Positions 1,571-13,213 of a DNA stretch of 64,000 bases are shown here, piece after piece. Position 1 is the stretch's first letter. Each line of letters starts with the position of its first letter. Location: contig CAWAUM010000001.1 in the NCBI GenBank assembly GCA_963785235.1, positions 672,001 to 736,000 on the forward strand, written 5' to 3'. A program made the translations under genes and the position numbers. Source of the DNA: an uncultured delta proteobacterium (lineage in GTDB: Bacteria > Desulfobacterota > Desulfomonilia > UBA1062). The notes below the pieces were generated by a model, which saw only the letters and a list, made by a program, of their open reading frames with translations, was not told the origin of the DNA and did no database searches.

Positions 1571-2653
1571 ATGGATGCATATGAAAAGCTTCGTGAGATA
1601 CTCGATGCCAGCCCTACCGGTGCGCCGGCCTCAAATGCCTTTGACGAGATCCTGAAGATCCTCTTCACGCCCGAAGAGGCTGACCTTGCCGTGCACATGA
1701 CCCTGTTCCCCAGGCCTGTAGAGGCAATAGCACTCGAAGCAGGCATTCCGTTGAAAGAGGCCATGGAAAGGCTGGAGGCCATGGCCGACAAGGCCATCAT
1801 CTTTGCGCGGGAAAAGGGCGGCACGAAGCTCTATGGTCTTCTGCCCACCATCCCGGGTCTATTTGAGTTCCCCCTCATGAGAGGGGCCACGACTCCGGCA
1901 CTGGCGCACCTGGGAAGGCTCTGGGATGAATACCACAGGGAAGCCCTGGGGGCATCCTTTTCAGGAAACCCGACCCCCCTTACCCGGGTTATCCCGGTAC
2001 ATCAATCCATAGATGCAGCCACGCAGGTCCACACCTATGAAGAGGTTGCCAGATTCATTGATGCAGTGGATTATATCGCCCTGGCCCAGTGTGCATGCAG
2101 GGTAAGCGTGGGTGCCTGCGATAAGCCTACCGAGATGTGCCTGGTCTTCGACAGCCCAGGTCGCTTTCTGGTGGAACGCGCCTTTGCGCGGAAAATTAGC
2201 CGGGAAGAGGCCATTGCCGTGCTTGACCGCGCACGGGAAGAAGGCCTGGTCCATACCAGCACCAACAGCGCCGACAAGCCGGCCCTGATCTGCAACTGCT
2301 GCACGTGCTGCTGTACGATCCTCACCTGTAAGACCCAGCTCGGTCTGCCCCATGCCTTTGCATCAAGCGGCTTTGTGGCGCAGATCAACGCAGATGACTG
2401 TACCGGGTGCGGCATCTGTGCGGATGATCGCTGCCCCATGGGGGCCATAGTAATTTCGGATAACACAGCCGTGCTGACCCATGAAAAATGCATCGGCTGC
2501 GGGCTGTGCGTCTCTGTCTGCCCTGGCGAAGCCATAACATTGACCAGAAGGGAAGACCCGCCCGAGGTGCCGGCCACGACCAGGGACCTTGGCGTGAAGG
2601 TGCTGGGCGAAAAGGGCAGACTGGAGGGCTTCCTTAAGCAGATGAAGCCTTAA
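1571..2653 (+). CDS. 4Fe-4S cluster-binding protein with N-terminal winged-helix-like region
   Basis: CACR, ICNCCTCCC, CTGCGICADDRCP and CIGCGLCVSVCP motifs; SD AGGAGG. Confidence 0.85.
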   Translation: MDAYEKLREILDASPTGAPASNAFDEILKILFTPEEADLAVHMTLFPRPVEAIALEAGIPLKEAMERLEAMADKAIIFAREKGGTKLYGLLPTIPGLFEFPLMRGATTPALAHLGRLWDEYHREALGASFSGNPTPLTRVIPVHQSIDAATQVHTYEEVARFIDAVDYIALAQCACRVSVGACDKPTEMCLVFDSPGRFLVERAFARKISREEAIAVLDRAREEGLVHTSTNSADKPALICNCCTCCCTILTCKTQLGLPHAFASSGFVAQINADDCTGCGICADDRCPMGAIVISDNTAVLTHEKCIGCGLCVSVCPGEAITLTRREDPPEVPATTRDLGVKVLGEKGRLEGFLKQMKP

Positions 2654-2659
2654 GGCGTC

Positions 2660-3380
2660 TTATAAGGCAGCTTGTAAGGGATGAGCATGGGCACCCTTTT
2701 CTGGTATTCTTGGTACTCCATCGCCGAACTCACTGACAAGGTCGCGCTCTTCCAGGACCGTGCCTGCAATGATCCAGATTGTCCACATGAGGTTGAAGAG
2801 CAGCCTGTCGGCAGTGAGTACGGGGCAGGACCAGAACATGATCAGTGAAAAGAAATAGAGGGGATGCCTCACCCATTGGTAGGCGCCCTGGACCTTCAGC
2901 GGCATCTGCACGGATATCCTTTTCCCTCATGTGTCGTCTTATGGCCTTGACCCCCAATGGATCGAATGACCCCAGCGACCTGGTCCCCCAGGAGAACCCT
3001 GCTATGCACAGGAAAAACAGCATGCGAAGGAGCCAGTAGGATGCACCCTCTGCTGTAAAAAGAGGTGCCGGGGTCTTCTGCCAGAAGAGCATCACTATGA
3101 GCAGGGCCATGCCTGATGTAAGGGCATAAAAGGCGCTATAGAATATATCAGGGATGATCCCTGCAAGCCGCTTCCGGACGGGCTGTCTGACCATGATGCT
3201 GTGCTGGAGAAAGAAGAGCAAAGACAGGCCTGCATCCAGAAGCAAGGACTGCCCAGTGTTCAATCCAAGGTCGAGTATGGTGAACGATCCCAGGAAGAGG
3301 AACAGGGAAAACAGCATCAGTGAACCGAGACCGAAAGACATGGTTGCATAGATCAAAATATTGGCTTTAATCCTGCTCAT
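2660..3380 (-). CDS. Nurim/MddA-like membrane methyltransferase (ICMT superfamily), frameshifted
   Basis: LFFLQHSIMVR...FWQ in one frame and GAYQWVRHPLYF...TADRLLF...GTVLEERDL in the next; frameshift near 2910 and probably a second near the 3' end. Confidence 0.75.
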
Positions 3381-3405
3381 AGTGACCTCGATGGCCATCG
3401 CTGCA

Positions 3406-3663
3406 TCAGGCCTTTGTATTTTCACTGCCTTGTGTGCCACAGCAGCCTTTCGTGAATTTAGAGAAGTCCGTTTGGCCGCAGCATGACTTGATTCCCTCGG
3501 GCATGCCTTTGCACATGTCCTTGAATTGAGACATCATGGATGCCATGTTTTTGCAGCATGCCTCCATCTGTTCCTTCATCTTCGACTTGTCTCCTTCGGG
3601 CATGCCCTTGCAGCACATGTCCATCATGAGGCCGAACATCTTTTCCTTGTTTCCTTTCATCAT
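3406..3663 (-). CDS. Small Cys/Met-rich protein
   Basis: 85 aa, four CC pairs, internal repeat DMC(C)KGMPEG; SD GGAGG. Confidence 0.7.
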   Translation of the reverse strand: MMKGNKEKMFGLMMDMCCKGMPEGDKSKMKEQMEACCKNMASMMSQFKDMCKGMPEGIKSCCGQTDFSKFTKGCCGTQGSENTKA

Positions 3664-3775: not shown

Positions 3776-4048
3776 TTACTCCTTTCTCTGGTTCAAAGAG
3801 CGATTCGTCCGGAAATTTCTTCCCCTTGCCAGGGTGAGGGCAATAATGGCAAAGCCTGCAACCAGCAATGCAACCGGCCAGAACAGTTCCGGGTCGAACC
3901 AGCCGGCCCTTGTGGCCAGCCAGAGTGTCCCGGCCAGGATAAGCATGATCCCGAACCCCATCCCGCAATAGCGGGGGGCATGTCCCATTATGGGTCCGCA
4001 GCAGCCGTACACCGTACTTCCTTCTCTGGGTCTCTCGGCATGCACCAT
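3776..4048 (-). CDS. Small two-TM membrane protein (LiaF/DUF5668-like) with N-terminal GCCG
   Basis: FGIMLILAGTLWL...FWPVALLVAG pattern; SD AAAGGAG before ATG 4048. Confidence 0.65.
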   Translation of the reverse strand: MVHAERPREGSTVYGCCGPIMGHAPRYCGMGFGIMLILAGTLWLATRAGWFDPELFWPVALLVAGFAIIALTLARGRNFRTNRSLNQRKE

Positions 4049-4095
4049 AATTCTACTCCTTTCTGCCCGGGTGTCGGGCAATGAATATTAGTTAA

Positions 4096-4111
4096 TTCGA
4101 TATATATCGAA
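4096..4111. promoter_or_regulatory. Candidate ArsR operator 1
   Basis: Perfect palindrome TTCGATATATATCGAA just downstream of a minus-strand TTGACA (4139-4144). Confidence 0.6.
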
Positions 4112-4214
4112 ATATCTAATAAGCCCCCTGCACGTGATTGTCAATACCTTTTGTGAAAAAAATTCAGTGCAGGGCTAATTCAGAGTAAAATCTGTTAAGT
4201 GGTCTGGTCGCCGT

Positions 4215-4548
4215 TCAGGGTTTGTCCTTGCCGGTGAGGTATCGGACCATCGAACTGATGGTCTCTTCATTCGCTGTTCAGAGGATCGATTGGCCTTGCC
4301 TCTCGCAGCGGACCAGGTGGGCCCGTCTGAGTTCCTTGATATGGTGAGAAATGGTGGACGGGGCAATACAGACAGCGTTCGCAACCGCACATACGGCAAG
4401 CCGGTTGTCGCCGTCAAGTTGCGCCTTCCCGCAGCCTGCAGCGGATCTGCTCGAAGATGGACAGGCGGTTCTTGTTTGACAGTGCCTTGAAGGCCTCCGC
4501 AAGGGCTTCCATGTCAAGGGGCGTTTCCTCGTTCTTTGTTGTGGGCAT
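4215..4548 (-). CDS. ArsR/SmtB family regulator, candidate selenoprotein (1-nt frameshift near 4440; in-frame TGA at 4278-4280)
   Basis: AEAFKALSNKNRLSIF...AVCAVA...IAPSTISHHIKELRRAHLVRCERQGQSIL[TGA]TANEETISSMVRYLTGKDKP*; SD AAGGAG. Confidence 0.8.
4245..4263 (-). ncRNA. Candidate bacterial SECIS element
   Basis: GACCATC-AGTTC-GATGGTC hairpin starting 14 nt after the UGA; loop has G at position 2 followed by U. Confidence 0.6.
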
Positions 4549-4584
4549 GACATCTCCTTAAGCTGAGCAGGTTCGAACAAGCAT

Positions 4585-4600
4585 TTCGATTATTATCGAT
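4585..4600. promoter_or_regulatory. Candidate ArsR operator 2 (autoregulation)
   Basis: TTCGATTATTATCGAT, the same TCGA-N6-TCGA spacing as operator 1; minus-strand TTGACA at 4632-4637. Confidence 0.55.
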
Positions 4601-4800
4601 ATGTCGAAGATCTAAACTCTTTCTTTCGTTGTGTCAAGATACACATGTATTGTAACTACCCAATCTGTTGGATTAATTATTTTTCTCCATGAAATGATAC
4701 TGCAAATCGTTCTTGCCAGACCCTTTGCCTTATGTAATGAAGAGATAGCACCGATAACAATCTACACAGAGATCGGCATCAAGGAGAACACTGGCTAACA

Positions 4801-10626: not shown

Positions 10627-11904
10627 TCAATCGGGAGAAAAGTTTTCAGGTTTAGAGTTGATCTTATCAAGAACGATAACAAGCGCCAGCCCTAAGACCG
10701 CTAGCCCTGACTCCATGTACAAGGCGTACGTAAATCCGCCGGTAAGCTCTTTTACACGTGCGAAGACAAAGGGCCCTGCAAAGCCCGCAAATCCGCAGGC
10801 GGTAAATATTACACCATAGATCTTGCCGATATTCAAAGGGCCGAATTCATCGGCAGCCAGCGCGGGCATCGTTGCCATGGTACCACCGTAGCAGGCAAGG
10901 AGGTAGAAGCACAGGACAGCGAATATGAAAGTGGTGTTCACATGGGCAAGCAGGGCAAAACCGAGAGCAAAGGAGATGAATATGAGGGCAAAGACCGACT
11001 TTCTCCCGATGAAATCAGATAGCCCAGGCCCAGATGAGCCTGCCAAGGCCGTTGAATATGCCTGCAATGGCCACAATAGTACCGGAAACCAGTAACAATA
11101 GATTTCATCTTCTCATCGGATATTGCACCTCCATAAGCCCTGATCATGACATCCTGTGCTATGGGCGAGAGTTGGGATATCAGGCCGAGCCCGGCAGTGA
11201 TGCTGACAAAGAGCATCATCCACAGGACCCAGAACCGGGGCGTACGCACGGCCTCGGCAAAAGAAGATGAGGCTGGAAGGATCGTGGCACAGGCGGATGA
11301 AGCTGGAGTCCTTATCCGGGGACCACCCATCCGGTGGGTTTACAAGGGTCAGCGCGGCGGTCAGGACCACAGCTAGGCTCAGCAAACCCCACATATAAAA
11401 GGTATTGGCGACCCCATACTTCATTATGAGCACAGGGCCGATATTGCCCAGGGCGAAAGCCCCCAGGCCGTAGCCCATCACGGCAAGACCGGTAAGCTGG
11501 CCACGCTTGTCCGGGAACCACCTGATAAGCGTGGCGATGGGGGTCACATATCCGAATCCTCCCCCTAGCCCGGTTATGATCCCGTAGGCGATTATGAGCA
11601 GGGTGATACTCCTTATACTGTTCGCTACCCCTGCCAGAAGAATCCCCGTGCCGAACAAGATGCCGCCCAGAGAGCCGATGATCCGTGGTGCTATGCGGTC
11701 CACCAGTGTGCCGCCAAAGGCAACGGCCGCTGCGAACATGGCACTGTTTACCATGAAGGCGTACTGGGTCTGGGTCTCACTCCATCCATTAGCAGCCATC
11801 ATGGGTTTTTTAAATATGGACCAGGCATATACTGTTCCAAGACAGAACTGCATTACGATGGCTGAAGCTGCAACAGATCTCCGCCTTGAGGCAGGATCTT
11901 TCAT
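10627..11904 (-). CDS. OFA (oxalate:formate antiporter-like) MFS transporter, multiple frameshifts
   Basis: QFCLGTVYAWSIF, WFPDKRG..GLAVMGYG, RFWVLW and CYGG...FG...GKIYG spread over several frames. Confidence 0.85.
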
Positions 11905-12170
11905 GATGGATTTTCCATAAGAGAGGTAAAGACCATATTCATTATTCATTATTTTACCTTAAAGACCCTTTCCTGGCCTGTAAAGTTCTATATGTGCGTA
12001 TCCCAGTCCAGATCAGTCTGAACTTGACTTAAAAGATCCACGTAAAAAAAAGTAGCGGCAATTTCATAGGAAAGGATTGACTTTGCATGAGAATGCAATT
12101 ATCAAATAGATGTTAAGCAAATTAGTACCTGTATGAGGATATCGGAACTGAAGAACGAGGAGGAGGACCT

Positions 12171-13213
12171 ATGAAAAATCGAAGTATGTTTCGTACAATT
12201 GCAGTTATGGTGTTTCTTATAGTATGTTTTTGTGCATCCGGGGCTTTTGCTGAAAACCGGGAAGGGGCTATCAATATAACCCCGTTTATCGGCGGATTTA
12301 ATACTGATCCAGATTTGCTGTATAAGAATGGACCAGCGTTTGGAATCGGTCTCGGATATAACTTTTCTGAGAAGCTCGGGGCTGAATTCACCTTCCACTA
12401 TGTCAACTCGGAGACCGACGGAGATGTCGTTATAAACGGAAGTTCAATTGACTGGGGCAAGGGTGATGCAAAGGTGTTCATATACAAGCTTGACCTTATC
12501 TACCATCTGACTGGCATTCTCCCTGGCGACCTGATTGTCCCCTACCTCGCAGCCGGTCCCGGCATGATCACGTGGGATCCCGACCGTCGTGATCTTGATA
12601 AAGACGATGACTTCCTGCTCAACTACGGTGGAGGATTAAAGATATTCCTTACCAGGAATCTTGCCCTCAGGGCTGACTTACGGAACGTTATCAATTTCAA
12701 TCAAGGTGATGACAGAGGCAGCAACTTCCTCTACACAGCCGGTCTGACCTATGAGATCGGCGGCAAGGAAAAGGAAGAGGTAAGGGAAGAGGCCCCTGCC
12801 CCGAGCCAGAGCCAGCCCCGGCTCCTGCACCTGTAGTAACACCGCCTCCGCCACCTGCCCCTGCAGTAAAAGAACAGGGCTCCATCATCTTCAGGAACAT
12901 CCAGTTTGATTTAAACAAGTCGAATATCAAACCCGAATCCTACCCGGTTCTCGACGAGGTTGTGGATTACCTGAAGGCCAATCCCAATGTGAAGATGGAG
13001 GTTCAGGGCCATACTTGCAACTTGGGGACAGCAGCGTACAACCTGAAGCTTTCCGACAGGCGGGCCGCTTCCGTGAAGACCTACCTTGTCGGCAAAGGAG
13101 TAGCGGCTGACAGGCTCGAGACAAAGGGTTACGGCCTTACCATGCCTGTGGCACCGAATGACAAGGAAGAGAACAGGGCAAGAAACAGAAGGGTCGAGTT
13201 CAAGCCTATCTAA
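12171..13213 (+). CDS. OmpA/OprF-like outer-membrane protein (frameshift in the Pro-Ala linker near 12815)
   Basis: Signal peptide, beta-barrel, then IQFDLNKS...VQGHTCNLG..YNLKLSDRRA...NRRVEF. Confidence 0.9.

Follow-up and report, generated by a model that had tools for sequence, protein, structure and literature searches.

The stretch of DNA analysed here (the window, 64,000 nucleotides) carries on its minus strand a gene for an ArsR-type repressor which is interrupted by an in-frame TGA, and the question raised by this locus is whether the codon terminates a shortened protein or is decoded as selenocysteine (Sec). The best explanation overall, to which we assign a probability of roughly 0.85, is that the gene encodes a Sec-containing ArsR repressor, whereby a hairpin downstream of the TGA would serve as SECIS element, the wing of the protein would provide the sensing site and derepression of the adjoining operon would be the outcome. 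Underlying this reading are a column occupied by either Sec or Cys among the homologues, coding past the TGA, a conserved hairpin, the presence of the Sec machinery, the ArsR fold and an operon which is conserved together with its boxes.

The ArsR-U gene and its TGA/Cys column

The gene, termed ArsR-U, comprises the following elements:

4548-4215, minus strand: ArsR-U gene (whole), ArsR-type repressor with an in-frame TGA at 4280-4278
4441..4548, minus strand: 5' part, Met1 to ...IFEQIR36, translated in the frame of ATG 4548 and matching the N-termini of relatives (MPTTK...)
4437..4440, minus strand: TGCA, four bases in place of a single codon in relatives, an assembly-specific +1 frameshift (DNA alignment)
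4281..4436, minus strand: middle part with a loop containing GCG, alpha3 (Cys53), the recognition helix (STISHHIKELRR), wing beta1 (Cys81) and beta2 to Leu89 (translations, Pfam HTH_5 and NCBIfam NF033788 matches, AlphaFold2 secondary structure)
4278..4280, minus strand: in-frame TGA, proposed to be read as Sec, residue 90 as counted in L017, an intact relative (TGA/Cys column in relatives)
4245..4263, minus strand: bSECIS-like hairpin with a 7-bp stem and the 5-nt loop AGUUC, conserved in relatives and within all four published bSECIS criteria
4215..4277, minus strand: post-Sec coding region TANEETISSMVRYLTGKDKP, helix alpha5 and tail, with the real stop TGA at 4217-4215 (codon-position entropy, pN/pS, predicted helix 94-105)

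As described in the initial annotation, one minus-strand frame leads from ERQGQSIL through the TGA (4280-4278) and TANEETISSMVRYLTGKDKP to the second TGA (4217-4215), with every element found at its place, and the first 36 residues, starting from ATG 4548, lie in a different frame from the remainder. The product of intact relatives has about 110 residues and belongs to the ArsR/SmtB-family winged-helix proteins: L017 scored 61.3 bits with NF033788 (cut-off 55) and 26.8 bits with PF01022 (cut-off 22), the 75-residue piece of the window alone reaching 46.9 bits with NF033788, which is under the cut-off of 55. An AlphaFold2 model (mean pLDDT 74) displayed the order alpha1-alpha2-alpha3-alpha4-beta1(79-84)-beta2(87-92)-alpha5(94-105), and a Foldseek search of the PDB returned 26 matches at E <= 0.001, all those listed being of the ArsR/SmtB type and the best ones being AfArsR (6J05), CzrA, NolR, HlyU and CadC. 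In ArsR/SmtB proteins alpha5 is the helix located in the dimer interface. As this helix is predicted to fall after the TGA, the earlier assertion that stopping there would cost the protein its last helix agrees with the model.

Homologues with Cys or TGA at this column, which the initial annotation had proposed to search for, make up the complete set of 80 loci retained out of 359 confirmed relatives, whereby 37 loci possess TGA and 43 possess Cys (TGC in 34, TGT in 9), with no other stop codon and with neither Trp nor Gly. Among 71 aligned proteins the residue-90 column is the sole invariant Cys/Sec column (71/71). The statement that related ArsRs often have Cys at this wing position holds for the subfamily, but not for ArsRs generally, as documented by CzrA, which has Tyr.

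In the relatives the frame past the TGA stays open for 20-25 codons up to the real stop. Judged from its substitution pattern, this frame is under purifying selection, with codon-position entropies of 0.54/0.39/1.04 in the post-TGA region and a pN/pS of 0.39 in frame, as compared to 0.27 upstream of the TGA and to 0.91 and 1.85 in the wrong frames. Aligned with the Cys-type relatives, the region furthermore matches their alpha5 free of gaps, and one locus nested inside the Sec clade (L050) possesses TGC at the column and a single uninterrupted frame. The Sec forms constitute one clade (support 100/100) of 33 Sec rows and one Cys row, every outgroup having Cys; by this topology the Sec family arose once, from Cys-bearing relatives located beside arsenic genes (arsM, acr3). 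It was seen in Desulfomonilia, in Syntrophales/Smithella and in a few other anaerobes, and within the genus the gene occurs in only 6 of 14 other genomes and is thus dispensable. Every database entry seen for the Sec clade is truncated to 87-103 residues and bears the label of an ordinary ArsR, meaning that annotation pipelines miss the family; all 32 close database proteins of this length end right before the residue-90 column.

The hairpin, the Sec machinery and other readings of the TGA

The TGA is followed by 14 nt (4277-4264), the stem GACCATC (4263-4257), the loop AGTTC (4256-4252) and the complementary stem GATGGTC (4251-4245), whereby the loop starts 21 nt past the UGA and has G and U at its positions 2 and 3. 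The perfect 7-bp hairpin reported in the initial annotation, with GU near the start of its loop, was thereby recovered base by base, and its resemblance to the bacterial SECIS consensus likewise stood. According to the bSECIS model as given in a figure legend (PMC13188914, Fig. 2), the loop has 3-9 nt, the stem 4-16 bp, a G resides within the first two loop positions, the UGA-to-loop distance is 16-37 nt and the MFE is <= -7.5 kcal/mol; the window shows the loop AGUUC, a stem of 7-8 bp, a spacing of 21 nt and an MFE of -10.5 kcal/mol (24-nt cut), and hence lies within all four bSECIS criteria. The same applies to 28 of 34 sequences, the other six departing from the energy limit alone (24-nt cut), and with 40-nt cuts all 30 distinct ones fold at -7.7 kcal/mol or better.

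Conservation of the hairpin among homologues, another point which was to be checked, was seen in all of the 34 distinct sequences: 92.4% of cells are paired, which none of 500 shuffles attained, and six core pairs are retained in 31-34 of the sequences. The G at the second loop base is invariant, and the stem codons are frozen, Thr being encoded by ACC (34/34) and Ile by ATC (31/31), while elsewhere in the alignment the same amino acids use three to four codons. Since compensatory change is nearly absent (one of seven pairs changes on both sides; covariation term 0.02 kcal/mol across 34 sequences), the RNA argument rests on these frozen synonymous sites; the covarying pair is the outermost one only and is unpaired in 15 of 34 sequences, and the conservation of the hairpin overlaps conserved residues (E-T-I...M-V). 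Over a 71-nt stretch the single sequence was not set apart from its shuffles by folding (z = -0.25), an equal or better fold being obtained with 78 of 200 of them, so that the significance of the hairpin comes from the comparison across relatives. In hairpin energy the TGA group and the Cys group overlap, and the p-value of their Mann-Whitney comparison overstates the difference, as the loci are related. A search of Rfam with positions 4100-4650 of the window gave no match at E <= 1, which says little, as no Rfam family for bacterial SECIS elements in general is known to us.

The genome furthermore encodes the Sec machinery which the initial annotation had suggested looking for, namely tRNA-Sec (on C4), selD (382.9 bits), selB (335.2 bits) and selA (520.7 bits), all three genes scoring above their cut-offs and selD itself carrying one TGA. 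selA was found in 7 of 8 genomes holding the TGA form, a co-occurrence which is uninformative, as selA is present in 36 of 41 relatives. Taken as a comparison of sequences, these data strongly support the TGA at 4280-4278 as a Sec codon.

If the TGA were a true stop, the locus would encode ArsR-like proteins of 87-94 residues devoid of alpha5, and the 3' conservation would have to be assigned to a second small ORF, an attenuator or a terminator. Precisely this truncated form is what gene callers and databases annotate (32 of 32 entries), and the location of the hairpin immediately 3' of the TGA as well as its weak covariation would fit such a view. However, the next 15 codons evolve as protein in frame and align gap-free to alpha5 of the Cys-type relatives, L050 possesses TGC and a continuous ORF within the Sec clade, and each of the 43 non-TGA loci has Cys and none another stop. 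A conserved start codon past the TGA is absent, the next residue being T, Q, M, V, K, N or L, and so is a T-run after the hairpin in the window. The product would moreover be deprived of the ArsR/SmtB dimer-interface helix, as given by established family knowledge and the predicted fold, and termination at this TGA is considered very improbable. Ranked marginally below it is the idea that the TGA is read through without Sec, whereby a near-cognate tRNA or an altered code would give Trp, Cys or Gly: the evidence cited for the Sec reading supports read-through itself, the residue inserted being predicted from sequence comparison. Yet the real stop of the same gene is a TGA, both in the window and in many relatives, which implies that TGA is not generally reassigned, and the homologues have Cys, the usual partner of Sec, but never Trp or Gly. 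The bSECIS-fitting hairpin at a fixed distance and the complete Sec machinery of the genome likewise speak against this idea.

The frameshift in the window's copy

The 1-nt frameshift near 4440, which had been pointed out as a caveat, corresponds to one extra base at 4437-4440 as compared to the relatives, whose contigs are without one base at either 4437 (run X3) or 4440 (run X2). In G000 residues 36-109 alone match in one frame; six genomes of the same genus match unbroken over 1-95 to 1-109. The extra base is probably an assembly error, for which the following observations are of relevance. The essential rpoC gene is also broken in the assembly, as is a carB paralogue, and within the same 13 kb an MFS transporter is split into three ORFs and an OmpA-family gene into two, both being intact in G002; the breaks of rpoC, the MFS transporter and the OmpA-family gene suggest that indel errors are common in this assembly. 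A common methylation motif at the extra bases (e.g., CTGCAG) was considered and rejected, as the sites 2720, 2916 and 4437 share no motif.

That the family is real and the window's copy a genuine pseudogene, the extra base being a true recent mutation in an operon decaying in this lineage, is in our view unlikely, though it draws on several observations. Three +1 frameshifts reside within one operon (arsR at about 4437, the MddA-like gene described below at about 2917 and about 2720), the flanking ORFs of 696, 360 and 247 aa are open, the frameshift rate is far above that of about 28 kb of conserved genes (four frame breaks), and the gene is patchy in the genus, as its presence in 6 of 14 other genomes documents. 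However, the very same assembly breaks rpoC together with the MFS transporter and the OmpA-family gene in the same 13 kb, and bar one base the gene is undamaged, with TGA, hairpin and stop in place and 84-96% identity to the relatives. Source reads were not found, the best sequencing run holding 0.24 of the sampled words and none a higher share; runs X1, X2, X3 and X18 represent relatives which are 85-99% alike and cannot decide whether the frameshift is real.

RNA-library contigs of X18 cover 4215-4538; they are no proof of transcription.

The candidate sensing site, the operon and related systems

Cys53, Cys81 and Sec90 are all invariant in the Sec clade (the two Cys in 32/32), and by strand register residues 81 and 90 oppose each other in the model (mean pLDDT 74). 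Sec90, at the end of beta2, is hence predicted to pair across the wing hairpin with Cys81 of beta1, and the site at which the modelled protein senses its inducer is most likely made up of these two residues and of Cys53 (start of alpha3). It could bind a thiophilic As(III)-type metalloid or metal through three ligands (S2Se), or act as a selenylsulfide/polychalcogenide switch; in line with the initial annotation, we infer a sensor for a metal(loid) or redox signal.

The genes and candidate operator boxes accompanying ArsR-U are:

4586..4599, unstranded: palindrome TCGAT-N4-ATCGA resembling an operator and sharing bases with the -10-like hexamer of the arsR promoter (promoter-like site 4616-4589)
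4094..4144, minus strand: second promoter-like region ahead of the next gene, TTGACA (4144-4139), 17 nt, TATTAG, then the 16-bp perfect palindrome TTCGATATATATCGAA (4111-4096), read from sequence
3776..4081, minus strand: small 101-aa membrane protein carrying a CCGP motif at its N-terminus and a pair of LiaI/LiaF-like TM helices (PF18917, 27.1 bits)
3406..3663, minus strand: Met/Cys-rich small protein, 85 aa, with several CC pairs (reading frame and family in relatives)
2650..3440, minus strand: MddA-like membrane S-methyltransferase gene with two +1 insertions (about 2917 and 2720; NF045656 match of an intact relative)

With the strict pattern, 10 of 38 loci show the TCGAT-N4-ATCGA palindrome upstream of arsR; the succession of TTGACA, -10 and box has the same layout in relatives, with the box located downstream of arsR in 14 of 38 loci. 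The small membrane protein adjoins the Sec-type arsR in 33 of 38 loci, the Met/Cys-rich family is present in 21, a second Cys-rich family in 10 and the MddA-like gene in 26 of the 38. An intact MddA-like relative of 262 aa matched NF045656 with 131.1 bits over positions 7-238 of 238; by this score the third operon gene is MddA-like and not MddA, as it stays under 270, the cut-off of the equivalog, despite a match over the full length. In the portions of the MddA/MddH-family literature covered by a search for terms, neither ArsR nor selenium is mentioned. Cys-type relatives are located beside arsM in 26 of 42 loci and beside acr3 in 10 of 42. The Sec-type operon contains no ars genes, so that an arsenic role does not follow from its context.

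The mechanism proposed assumes that the hairpin 14 nt past the TGA would act as bacterial SECIS, whereupon the TGA would be decoded as Sec. Binding of an inducer at Cys53/Cys81/Sec90 would then cause the dimer to leave the TCGAT-N4-ATCGA boxes at its own promoter and at that of the next genes, and release of the repressor would derepress the CC-motif membrane protein, the Met/Cys-rich protein and the MddA-like thiol S-methyltransferase. Selenium insertion, the sensing site, its inducer and the logic of repression are the parts of the best explanation that we infer.

The statement of the initial annotation that no characterised Sec-containing ArsR is known was borne out by a literature search for a Sec-containing ArsR or regulator, which found no such report, and by the prokaryotic selenoprotein catalogues of 2022 and 2026, which list no ArsR/HTH regulator as far as the table of the former and the main text of the latter are concerned, selenoproteins under ArsR, SmtB, HTH or PF01022/PF12840 being absent from both. 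It is tentatively suggested, at somewhat less than even odds, that the protein is the first recognised ArsR/SmtB-type DNA-binding selenoprotein, that its wing Sec opposite an invariant Cys constitutes a fourth, independently evolved ArsR site (an S2Se set or a cross-strand Se-S switch), that it controls a chalcogen-handling operon (an MddA-like H2S/MeSH-type methyltransferase and Cys-rich proteins) and that its synthesis reports selenium supply, the latter because the repressor would be completed only when selenium is available. If this holds true, gene control would be coupled directly to the selenium status of the cell, and the use of Sec would extend to gene regulation, the bacterial selenoproteins in the catalogue parts named above being enzymes, redox carriers and transporters. 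It would also provide a natural Sec-for-Cys swap at a ligand position, with Cys-type sisters for direct comparison, which would test the benefit of selenium to a sensor, be it affinity, a lower pKa or resistance to over-oxidation. As the operon links the sensor to an MddA-like family known for volatile methylated sulfur compounds, this would be of relevance to how sulfur, selenium and arsenic are cycled in wetlands and sediments.

Among known systems, the As(III)-responsive ArsRs (R773 ArsR, AfArsR 6J05, CgArsR 6J0E) share family and fold with the Sec family, 6J05 being the top Foldseek match (E 3.6e-05, TM 0.69-0.84). Common to both are a small autoregulated repressor (predicted here), palindromic boxes (candidates here) and three conserved chalcogen ligands (putative here), and the Cys-type sister groups of the Sec family adjoin arsM and acr3; in a comparison with R773 ArsR, Cys53 presumably corresponds to the Cys region in alpha3 of the classical ArsRs. 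Unlike these proteins, the Sec family has Sec in place of Cys as one of its putative ligands, a conserved trio at alpha3, beta1 and beta2 (wing), some 10 extra residues between alpha2 and alpha3, and putative regulated genes which are not ars genes. To our knowledge, the alpha3/beta1/beta2 trio differs from each of the three types of As(III) site that have been described in ArsRs. Of the alpha5-site Zn sensors CzrA and SmtB, CzrA comes closest among the solved sequences (1R1U/4GGG, E 2-3e-07) and shares the RQGQS-hydrophobic wing, but has Tyr at column 90 where the Sec family has Sec or Cys; the His/Asp alpha5 ligands of CzrA/SmtB are presumably missing from the Sec family, whose C-terminus we take to be much shorter.

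The two-Cys persulfide/redox sensors SqrR, BigR and HlyU likewise possess a conserved chalcogen pair in an ArsR fold, HlyU being among the fold matches, and the operon of the Sec family is tied to volatile sulfur chemistry via the MddA-like H2S/MeSH methyltransferase family. Their Cys pair is located in alpha2 and alpha5, not across the wing, none of them is known with Sec, and the BigR equivalog model gave the Sec family 16.2-20.9 bits (cut-off 155). Selenoproteins with Sec replacing a metal(loid)-handling Cys are known as well (ArsM, MerT-like, CopZ-like, P-type ATPase, arsenate reductase), and resemble ArsR-U in having an in-frame UGA with a downstream hairpin, Cys homologues and an occurrence in anaerobic selenoprotein-rich deltaproteobacterial lineages. 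These belong to arsenic, mercury or copper systems (2022 table), and the families listed in the catalogue parts considered are enzymes, carriers and transporters, with no DNA-binding regulator among them, unlike the Sec ArsR. A transcription regulator tied to selenium is given by the selenium-responsive LysR_Se/HrsM, which, according to the part of the source considered, is of the LysR type and itself no selenoprotein, whereas the Sec ArsR is predicted to carry the selenium itself.

The in-frame TGA and the coding frame behind it

The initial annotation had described an ArsR-type gene interrupted by an in-frame TGA and followed by a hairpin, and translation and folding placed the frame, the hairpin and its spacing exactly as it had reported, whereby this sequence observation is confirmed.

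4548 (ATG) to 4217-4215 (final TGA), minus strand: ArsR-type gene, from translation
4263-4257 (stem), 4256-4252 (loop AGTTC), 4251-4245 (stem), minus strand: perfect 7-bp hairpin, 14 nt 3' of the first TGA

On the minus strand, the N-terminal frame starting with ATG 4548 reads MPTTKNEETPLDMEALAEAFKALSNKNRLSIFEQIR and then encounters a stop, and the second frame of the gene reads ...GCGKAQLDGDNRLAVCAVANAVCIAPSTISHHIKELRRAHLVRCERQGQSIL, TGA 4280-4278, TANEETISSMVRYLTGKDKP and finally TGA 4217-4215. When the read-through piece was used as protein query, 40 matches were obtained, the 32 closest of which (64-96% identical, 87-103 aa) without exception (32/32) end exactly before the TGA column, and the remaining eight, distant and full-length, possess Cys at this position. 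Scanning a single genome from each species led to 359 confirmed relatives, and among the best 80 of these 359, which were retained, the Sec column is occupied by TGA (37), TGC (34) or TGT (9) and by no other codon, so that the Cys or TGA foreseen for homologues was found in 80/80. In every sufficiently long TGA locus the frame stays open for 20-25 codons past the TGA up to the true stop, and the protein sequence encoded there is conserved (...EETI(R/S/G)(M/S/L)MV.YLTG...). Further analysis involved 34 distinct TGA-type sequences (33 loci and the window, after removal of three duplicates and of one locus at a contig end), for which the variability within the 15 codons following the TGA amounts to 0.54/0.39/1.04 bits per codon position. 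Here, pN/pS is 0.39 as compared to 0.27 over the 50 codons that precede the TGA; the two wrong frames, which carry stops in most of the 34 sequences, give 0.91 and 1.85. At the level of the family, these comparative data were taken to show that translation runs past the UGA, and they strongly support the reading of this codon as selenocysteine. In addition, two more distant ArsR-like proteins in the databases (P0046, P0054; 88 aa) were seen to stop at this column, with a Cys nine residues before their end, and a partial match with one TGA was found in another family of the class (G028:C191:1528-1671); all three may represent further Sec-type subclades.

For the maximum-likelihood tree, 73 distinct proteins were used with the Sec/Cys column masked, leaving out three short rows and four duplicates. 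A single clade with 100/100 support takes in all Sec forms, consisting of 33 Sec rows and one Cys row (L050), and each outgroup row carries Cys. L050 is deeply nested within the Sec clade, its gene is uninterrupted and TGC is found at the Sec column. According to database labels, the clade covers Desulfomonilia, Syntrophales/Smithella and a few Spirochaetota bins.

The hairpin as putative bacterial SECIS and the host machinery

Considered on its own and without comparison, the window hairpin is not remarkable, as the 71-nt stretch of this single sequence folds no better than its shuffles (z = -0.25; 78/200 shuffles fold as well); no Rfam match was obtained at the hairpin region. The bacterial SECIS model (PMC13188914, legend of Fig. 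2) allows for a loop of 3-9 nt with a G within its first two positions, a stem of 4-16 bp, a UGA-to-loop distance of 16-37 nt and an MFE of <= -7.5 kcal/mol, and the proposed agreement with this geometry holds for the window on all four counts (loop AGUUC, 21 nt, -10.5 kcal/mol). The same is true for 28/34 sequences; the other six fall short of the energy limit only, on a 24-nt cut, and 40-nt cuts of the 30 distinct TGA sequences all reach -7.7 kcal/mol or better. The hairpin is also conserved among TGA-type homologues, with each of the six core stem pairs being of a standard type in 31-34 of the 34 and loop position 2 being an invariant G. Stem pairing across the alignment extends to 92.4% of cells, a value reached by 0/500 column shuffles of the 34 sequences, and falls to 2-60% when the partner strand is slid by 1-3 columns. 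Compensatory change is nearly nil, with the outer pair alone varying on both sides (GC 10, AU 7, CG 1, GU 1, unpaired 15). The in-stem codons are frozen (Thr = ACC in 34/34, Ile = ATC in 31/31), and outside the stem three or four codons are used for Thr and Ile in the same alignment; judged from the alignment, these synonymous sites are a better argument for the putative hairpin than covariation. No hairpin common to Cys-type loci was found. Mean fold energies are -7.1 for Cys-type and -9.8 for TGA-type loci with overlapping distributions, and since the loci are kin the p-value of this comparison is only indicative.

The Sec machinery anticipated for the host is present in the assembly holding the window (G000; 3.9 Mb, 13 contigs, 93% complete), which encodes tRNA-Sec, selA, selB and selD. 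The selD gene (L001, G000:C7:36484-40404) possesses a single in-frame TGA of its own, and the organism therefore already makes at least one selenoprotein. The TGA-form ArsR was identified in 8/41 related genomes, each match with one internal TGA, and selA in seven of these eight (the eighth is 71% complete), a co-occurrence which does not discriminate since selA is found in 36/41 genomes overall.

Operon context and broken reading frames

Three kinds of same-strand genes were identified 3' of the Sec-type arsR, which in the window are accompanied by two candidate palindromes.

3776-4081, minus strand: membrane protein with two helices and a CCGP motif on the cytoplasmic side; borderline PF18917 (27.1 bits vs 27)
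3406-3663, minus strand: Met/Cys-rich small protein with four CC pairs; no model above curated cut-off
2650-3440, minus strand: MddA-like membrane methyltransferase gene, broken in the window, intact at 262 aa in relatives
4586-4599: candidate palindrome TCGAT-N4-ATCGA, covering the arsR promoter's -10-like hexamer
4094-4113: candidate palindrome TCGAT-N4-ATCGA just behind a TTGACA/-10 pair, 5' of the next gene

Among 38 Sec-type loci (37 and the window), many of which end at contig ends, the small two-helix membrane protein with its N-terminal CC motif occurs in 33, the Met/Cys-rich small proteins, forming two families, in 21 and 10, and the membrane methyltransferase (~262 aa) in 26. The latter matches the model of MddA (methanethiol S-methyltransferase) over its whole length with 131 bits, under the equivalog cut-off of 270; MddA itself was described as an H2S and MeSH S-methyltransferase (PMC11445057). 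The layout of promoter-like pair and palindrome recurs in relatives, the strict pattern being found upstream of arsR in 10/38 and downstream in 14/38 Sec-type loci. Beside the Cys-type outgroup arsR, arsM is found in 26/42 loci (349.7 bits against a cut-off of 263) and acr3 in 10/42 (454.5 bits), which therefore ties the wider family to arsenic. The Cys-type relatives L051-L093 possess SCC..PG and C.C motifs together with an invariant wing Cys. This subfamily is likely arsenic-sensing; to our knowledge, none of its members has been characterised.

The 1-nt frameshift noted near 4440 was recovered, with TGCA being present where the DNA alignment of relatives shows one codon.

10627-11949, minus strand: MFS transporter gene split into three ORFs; additional bases at ~11022, ~11092 and ~11310 vs the same-genus genome G002
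12171-13210, plus strand: OmpA-family gene in two ORFs, split at ~12800

Contigs of relatives from two other metagenomes have one base fewer, at 4437 or 4440, and six same-genus genomes match the ArsR unbroken, G000 matching from residue 36 only. A real, recent inactivation of the window's arsR would fit the clustering of three frameshift events in one dispensable operon, as the MddA-like gene holds two more +1 insertions (~2917 and ~2720), both absent from relatives' contigs. However, other genes of the assembly are likewise broken: outside the window, rpoC is divided between two frames near a lysine-rich stretch (G000:C3:149300-150300) and a second carB copy falls into four pieces alternating between two frames (G000:C7:223889-227033); the MFS transporter and OmpA-family genes, both within the same 13 kb, are intact in G002, which points to indel errors of this assembly. 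Unbroken in G000 are rpoB, uvrA, dnaE, secA, carB-1, selA and selB. Inactivation is regarded as the less likely reading, and the window's arsR copy is probably broken by artefact, assembly error being assigned a probability of roughly 0.7.

Proposed sensing mechanism and relation to known regulators

The intact Sec-type relative L017, which serves as numbering reference, lies above the ArsR/SmtB cut-offs (NF033788, 61.3 bits vs 55; PF01022, 26.8 bits vs 22). An AlphaFold2 model computed from an alignment of 71 sequences, with a mean pLDDT of 74, predicts a1 (13-23), a2 (26-36), a loop that is poorly defined, a3 (53-59), a4 (63-75), the wing strands b1 (79-84) and b2 (87-92) and a5 (94-105), the latter being the helix which, as initially reasoned, would be lost if translation ended at the TGA. 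Throughout the Sec clade, Cys53 and Cys81 do not vary, and Cys-type outgroups mostly have Met or Lys at position 81. Given a two-residue turn at 85-86, Cys81 would by strand register of the predicted secondary structure face Sec90 across the modelled wing. The invariant Cys or Sec at position 90 would most simply be a ligand of the sensory site. The Sec-type ArsR is proposed to act as a dimeric autorepressor, for which two sensing modes may be considered: either a thiophilic metalloid or metal would be bound in an S2Se site made up of Cys53, Cys81 and Sec90, for which the arsenic ancestry speaks, or Cys81 and Sec90 would join in a Se-S or polychalcogenide bridge, the MddA-like gene speaking for reactive sulfur or selenium species as signal. 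Either event, taking place in the DNA-contacting wing, would cause the repressor to let go of its boxes.

The initial statement that no characterised Sec-containing ArsR is known agrees with the literature covered: the table headed as complete list of reported prokaryotic selenoprotein families (PMC9312934, 2022; 87 entries) holds no ArsR or HTH regulator, and the main text of a 2026 review (PMC13188914) makes no mention of ArsR, SmtB, helix-turn-helix or DNA-binding regulators. Neither ArsR nor transcription regulator nor helix-turn-helix is mentioned in the BSepDB paper, NCBIfam holds no Sec-ArsR model and no report was found in the open full-text literature; large selenoprotein surveys may include unnamed cases. 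The Sec-type ArsR is regarded as a new selenoprotein family inside a well-known regulator family. The top PDB fold matches of the model are AfArsR (6J05), CzrA, NolR, SrnR, HlyU and CadC, and CzrA, the nearest solved sequence, differs in possessing Tyr at the Sec column.
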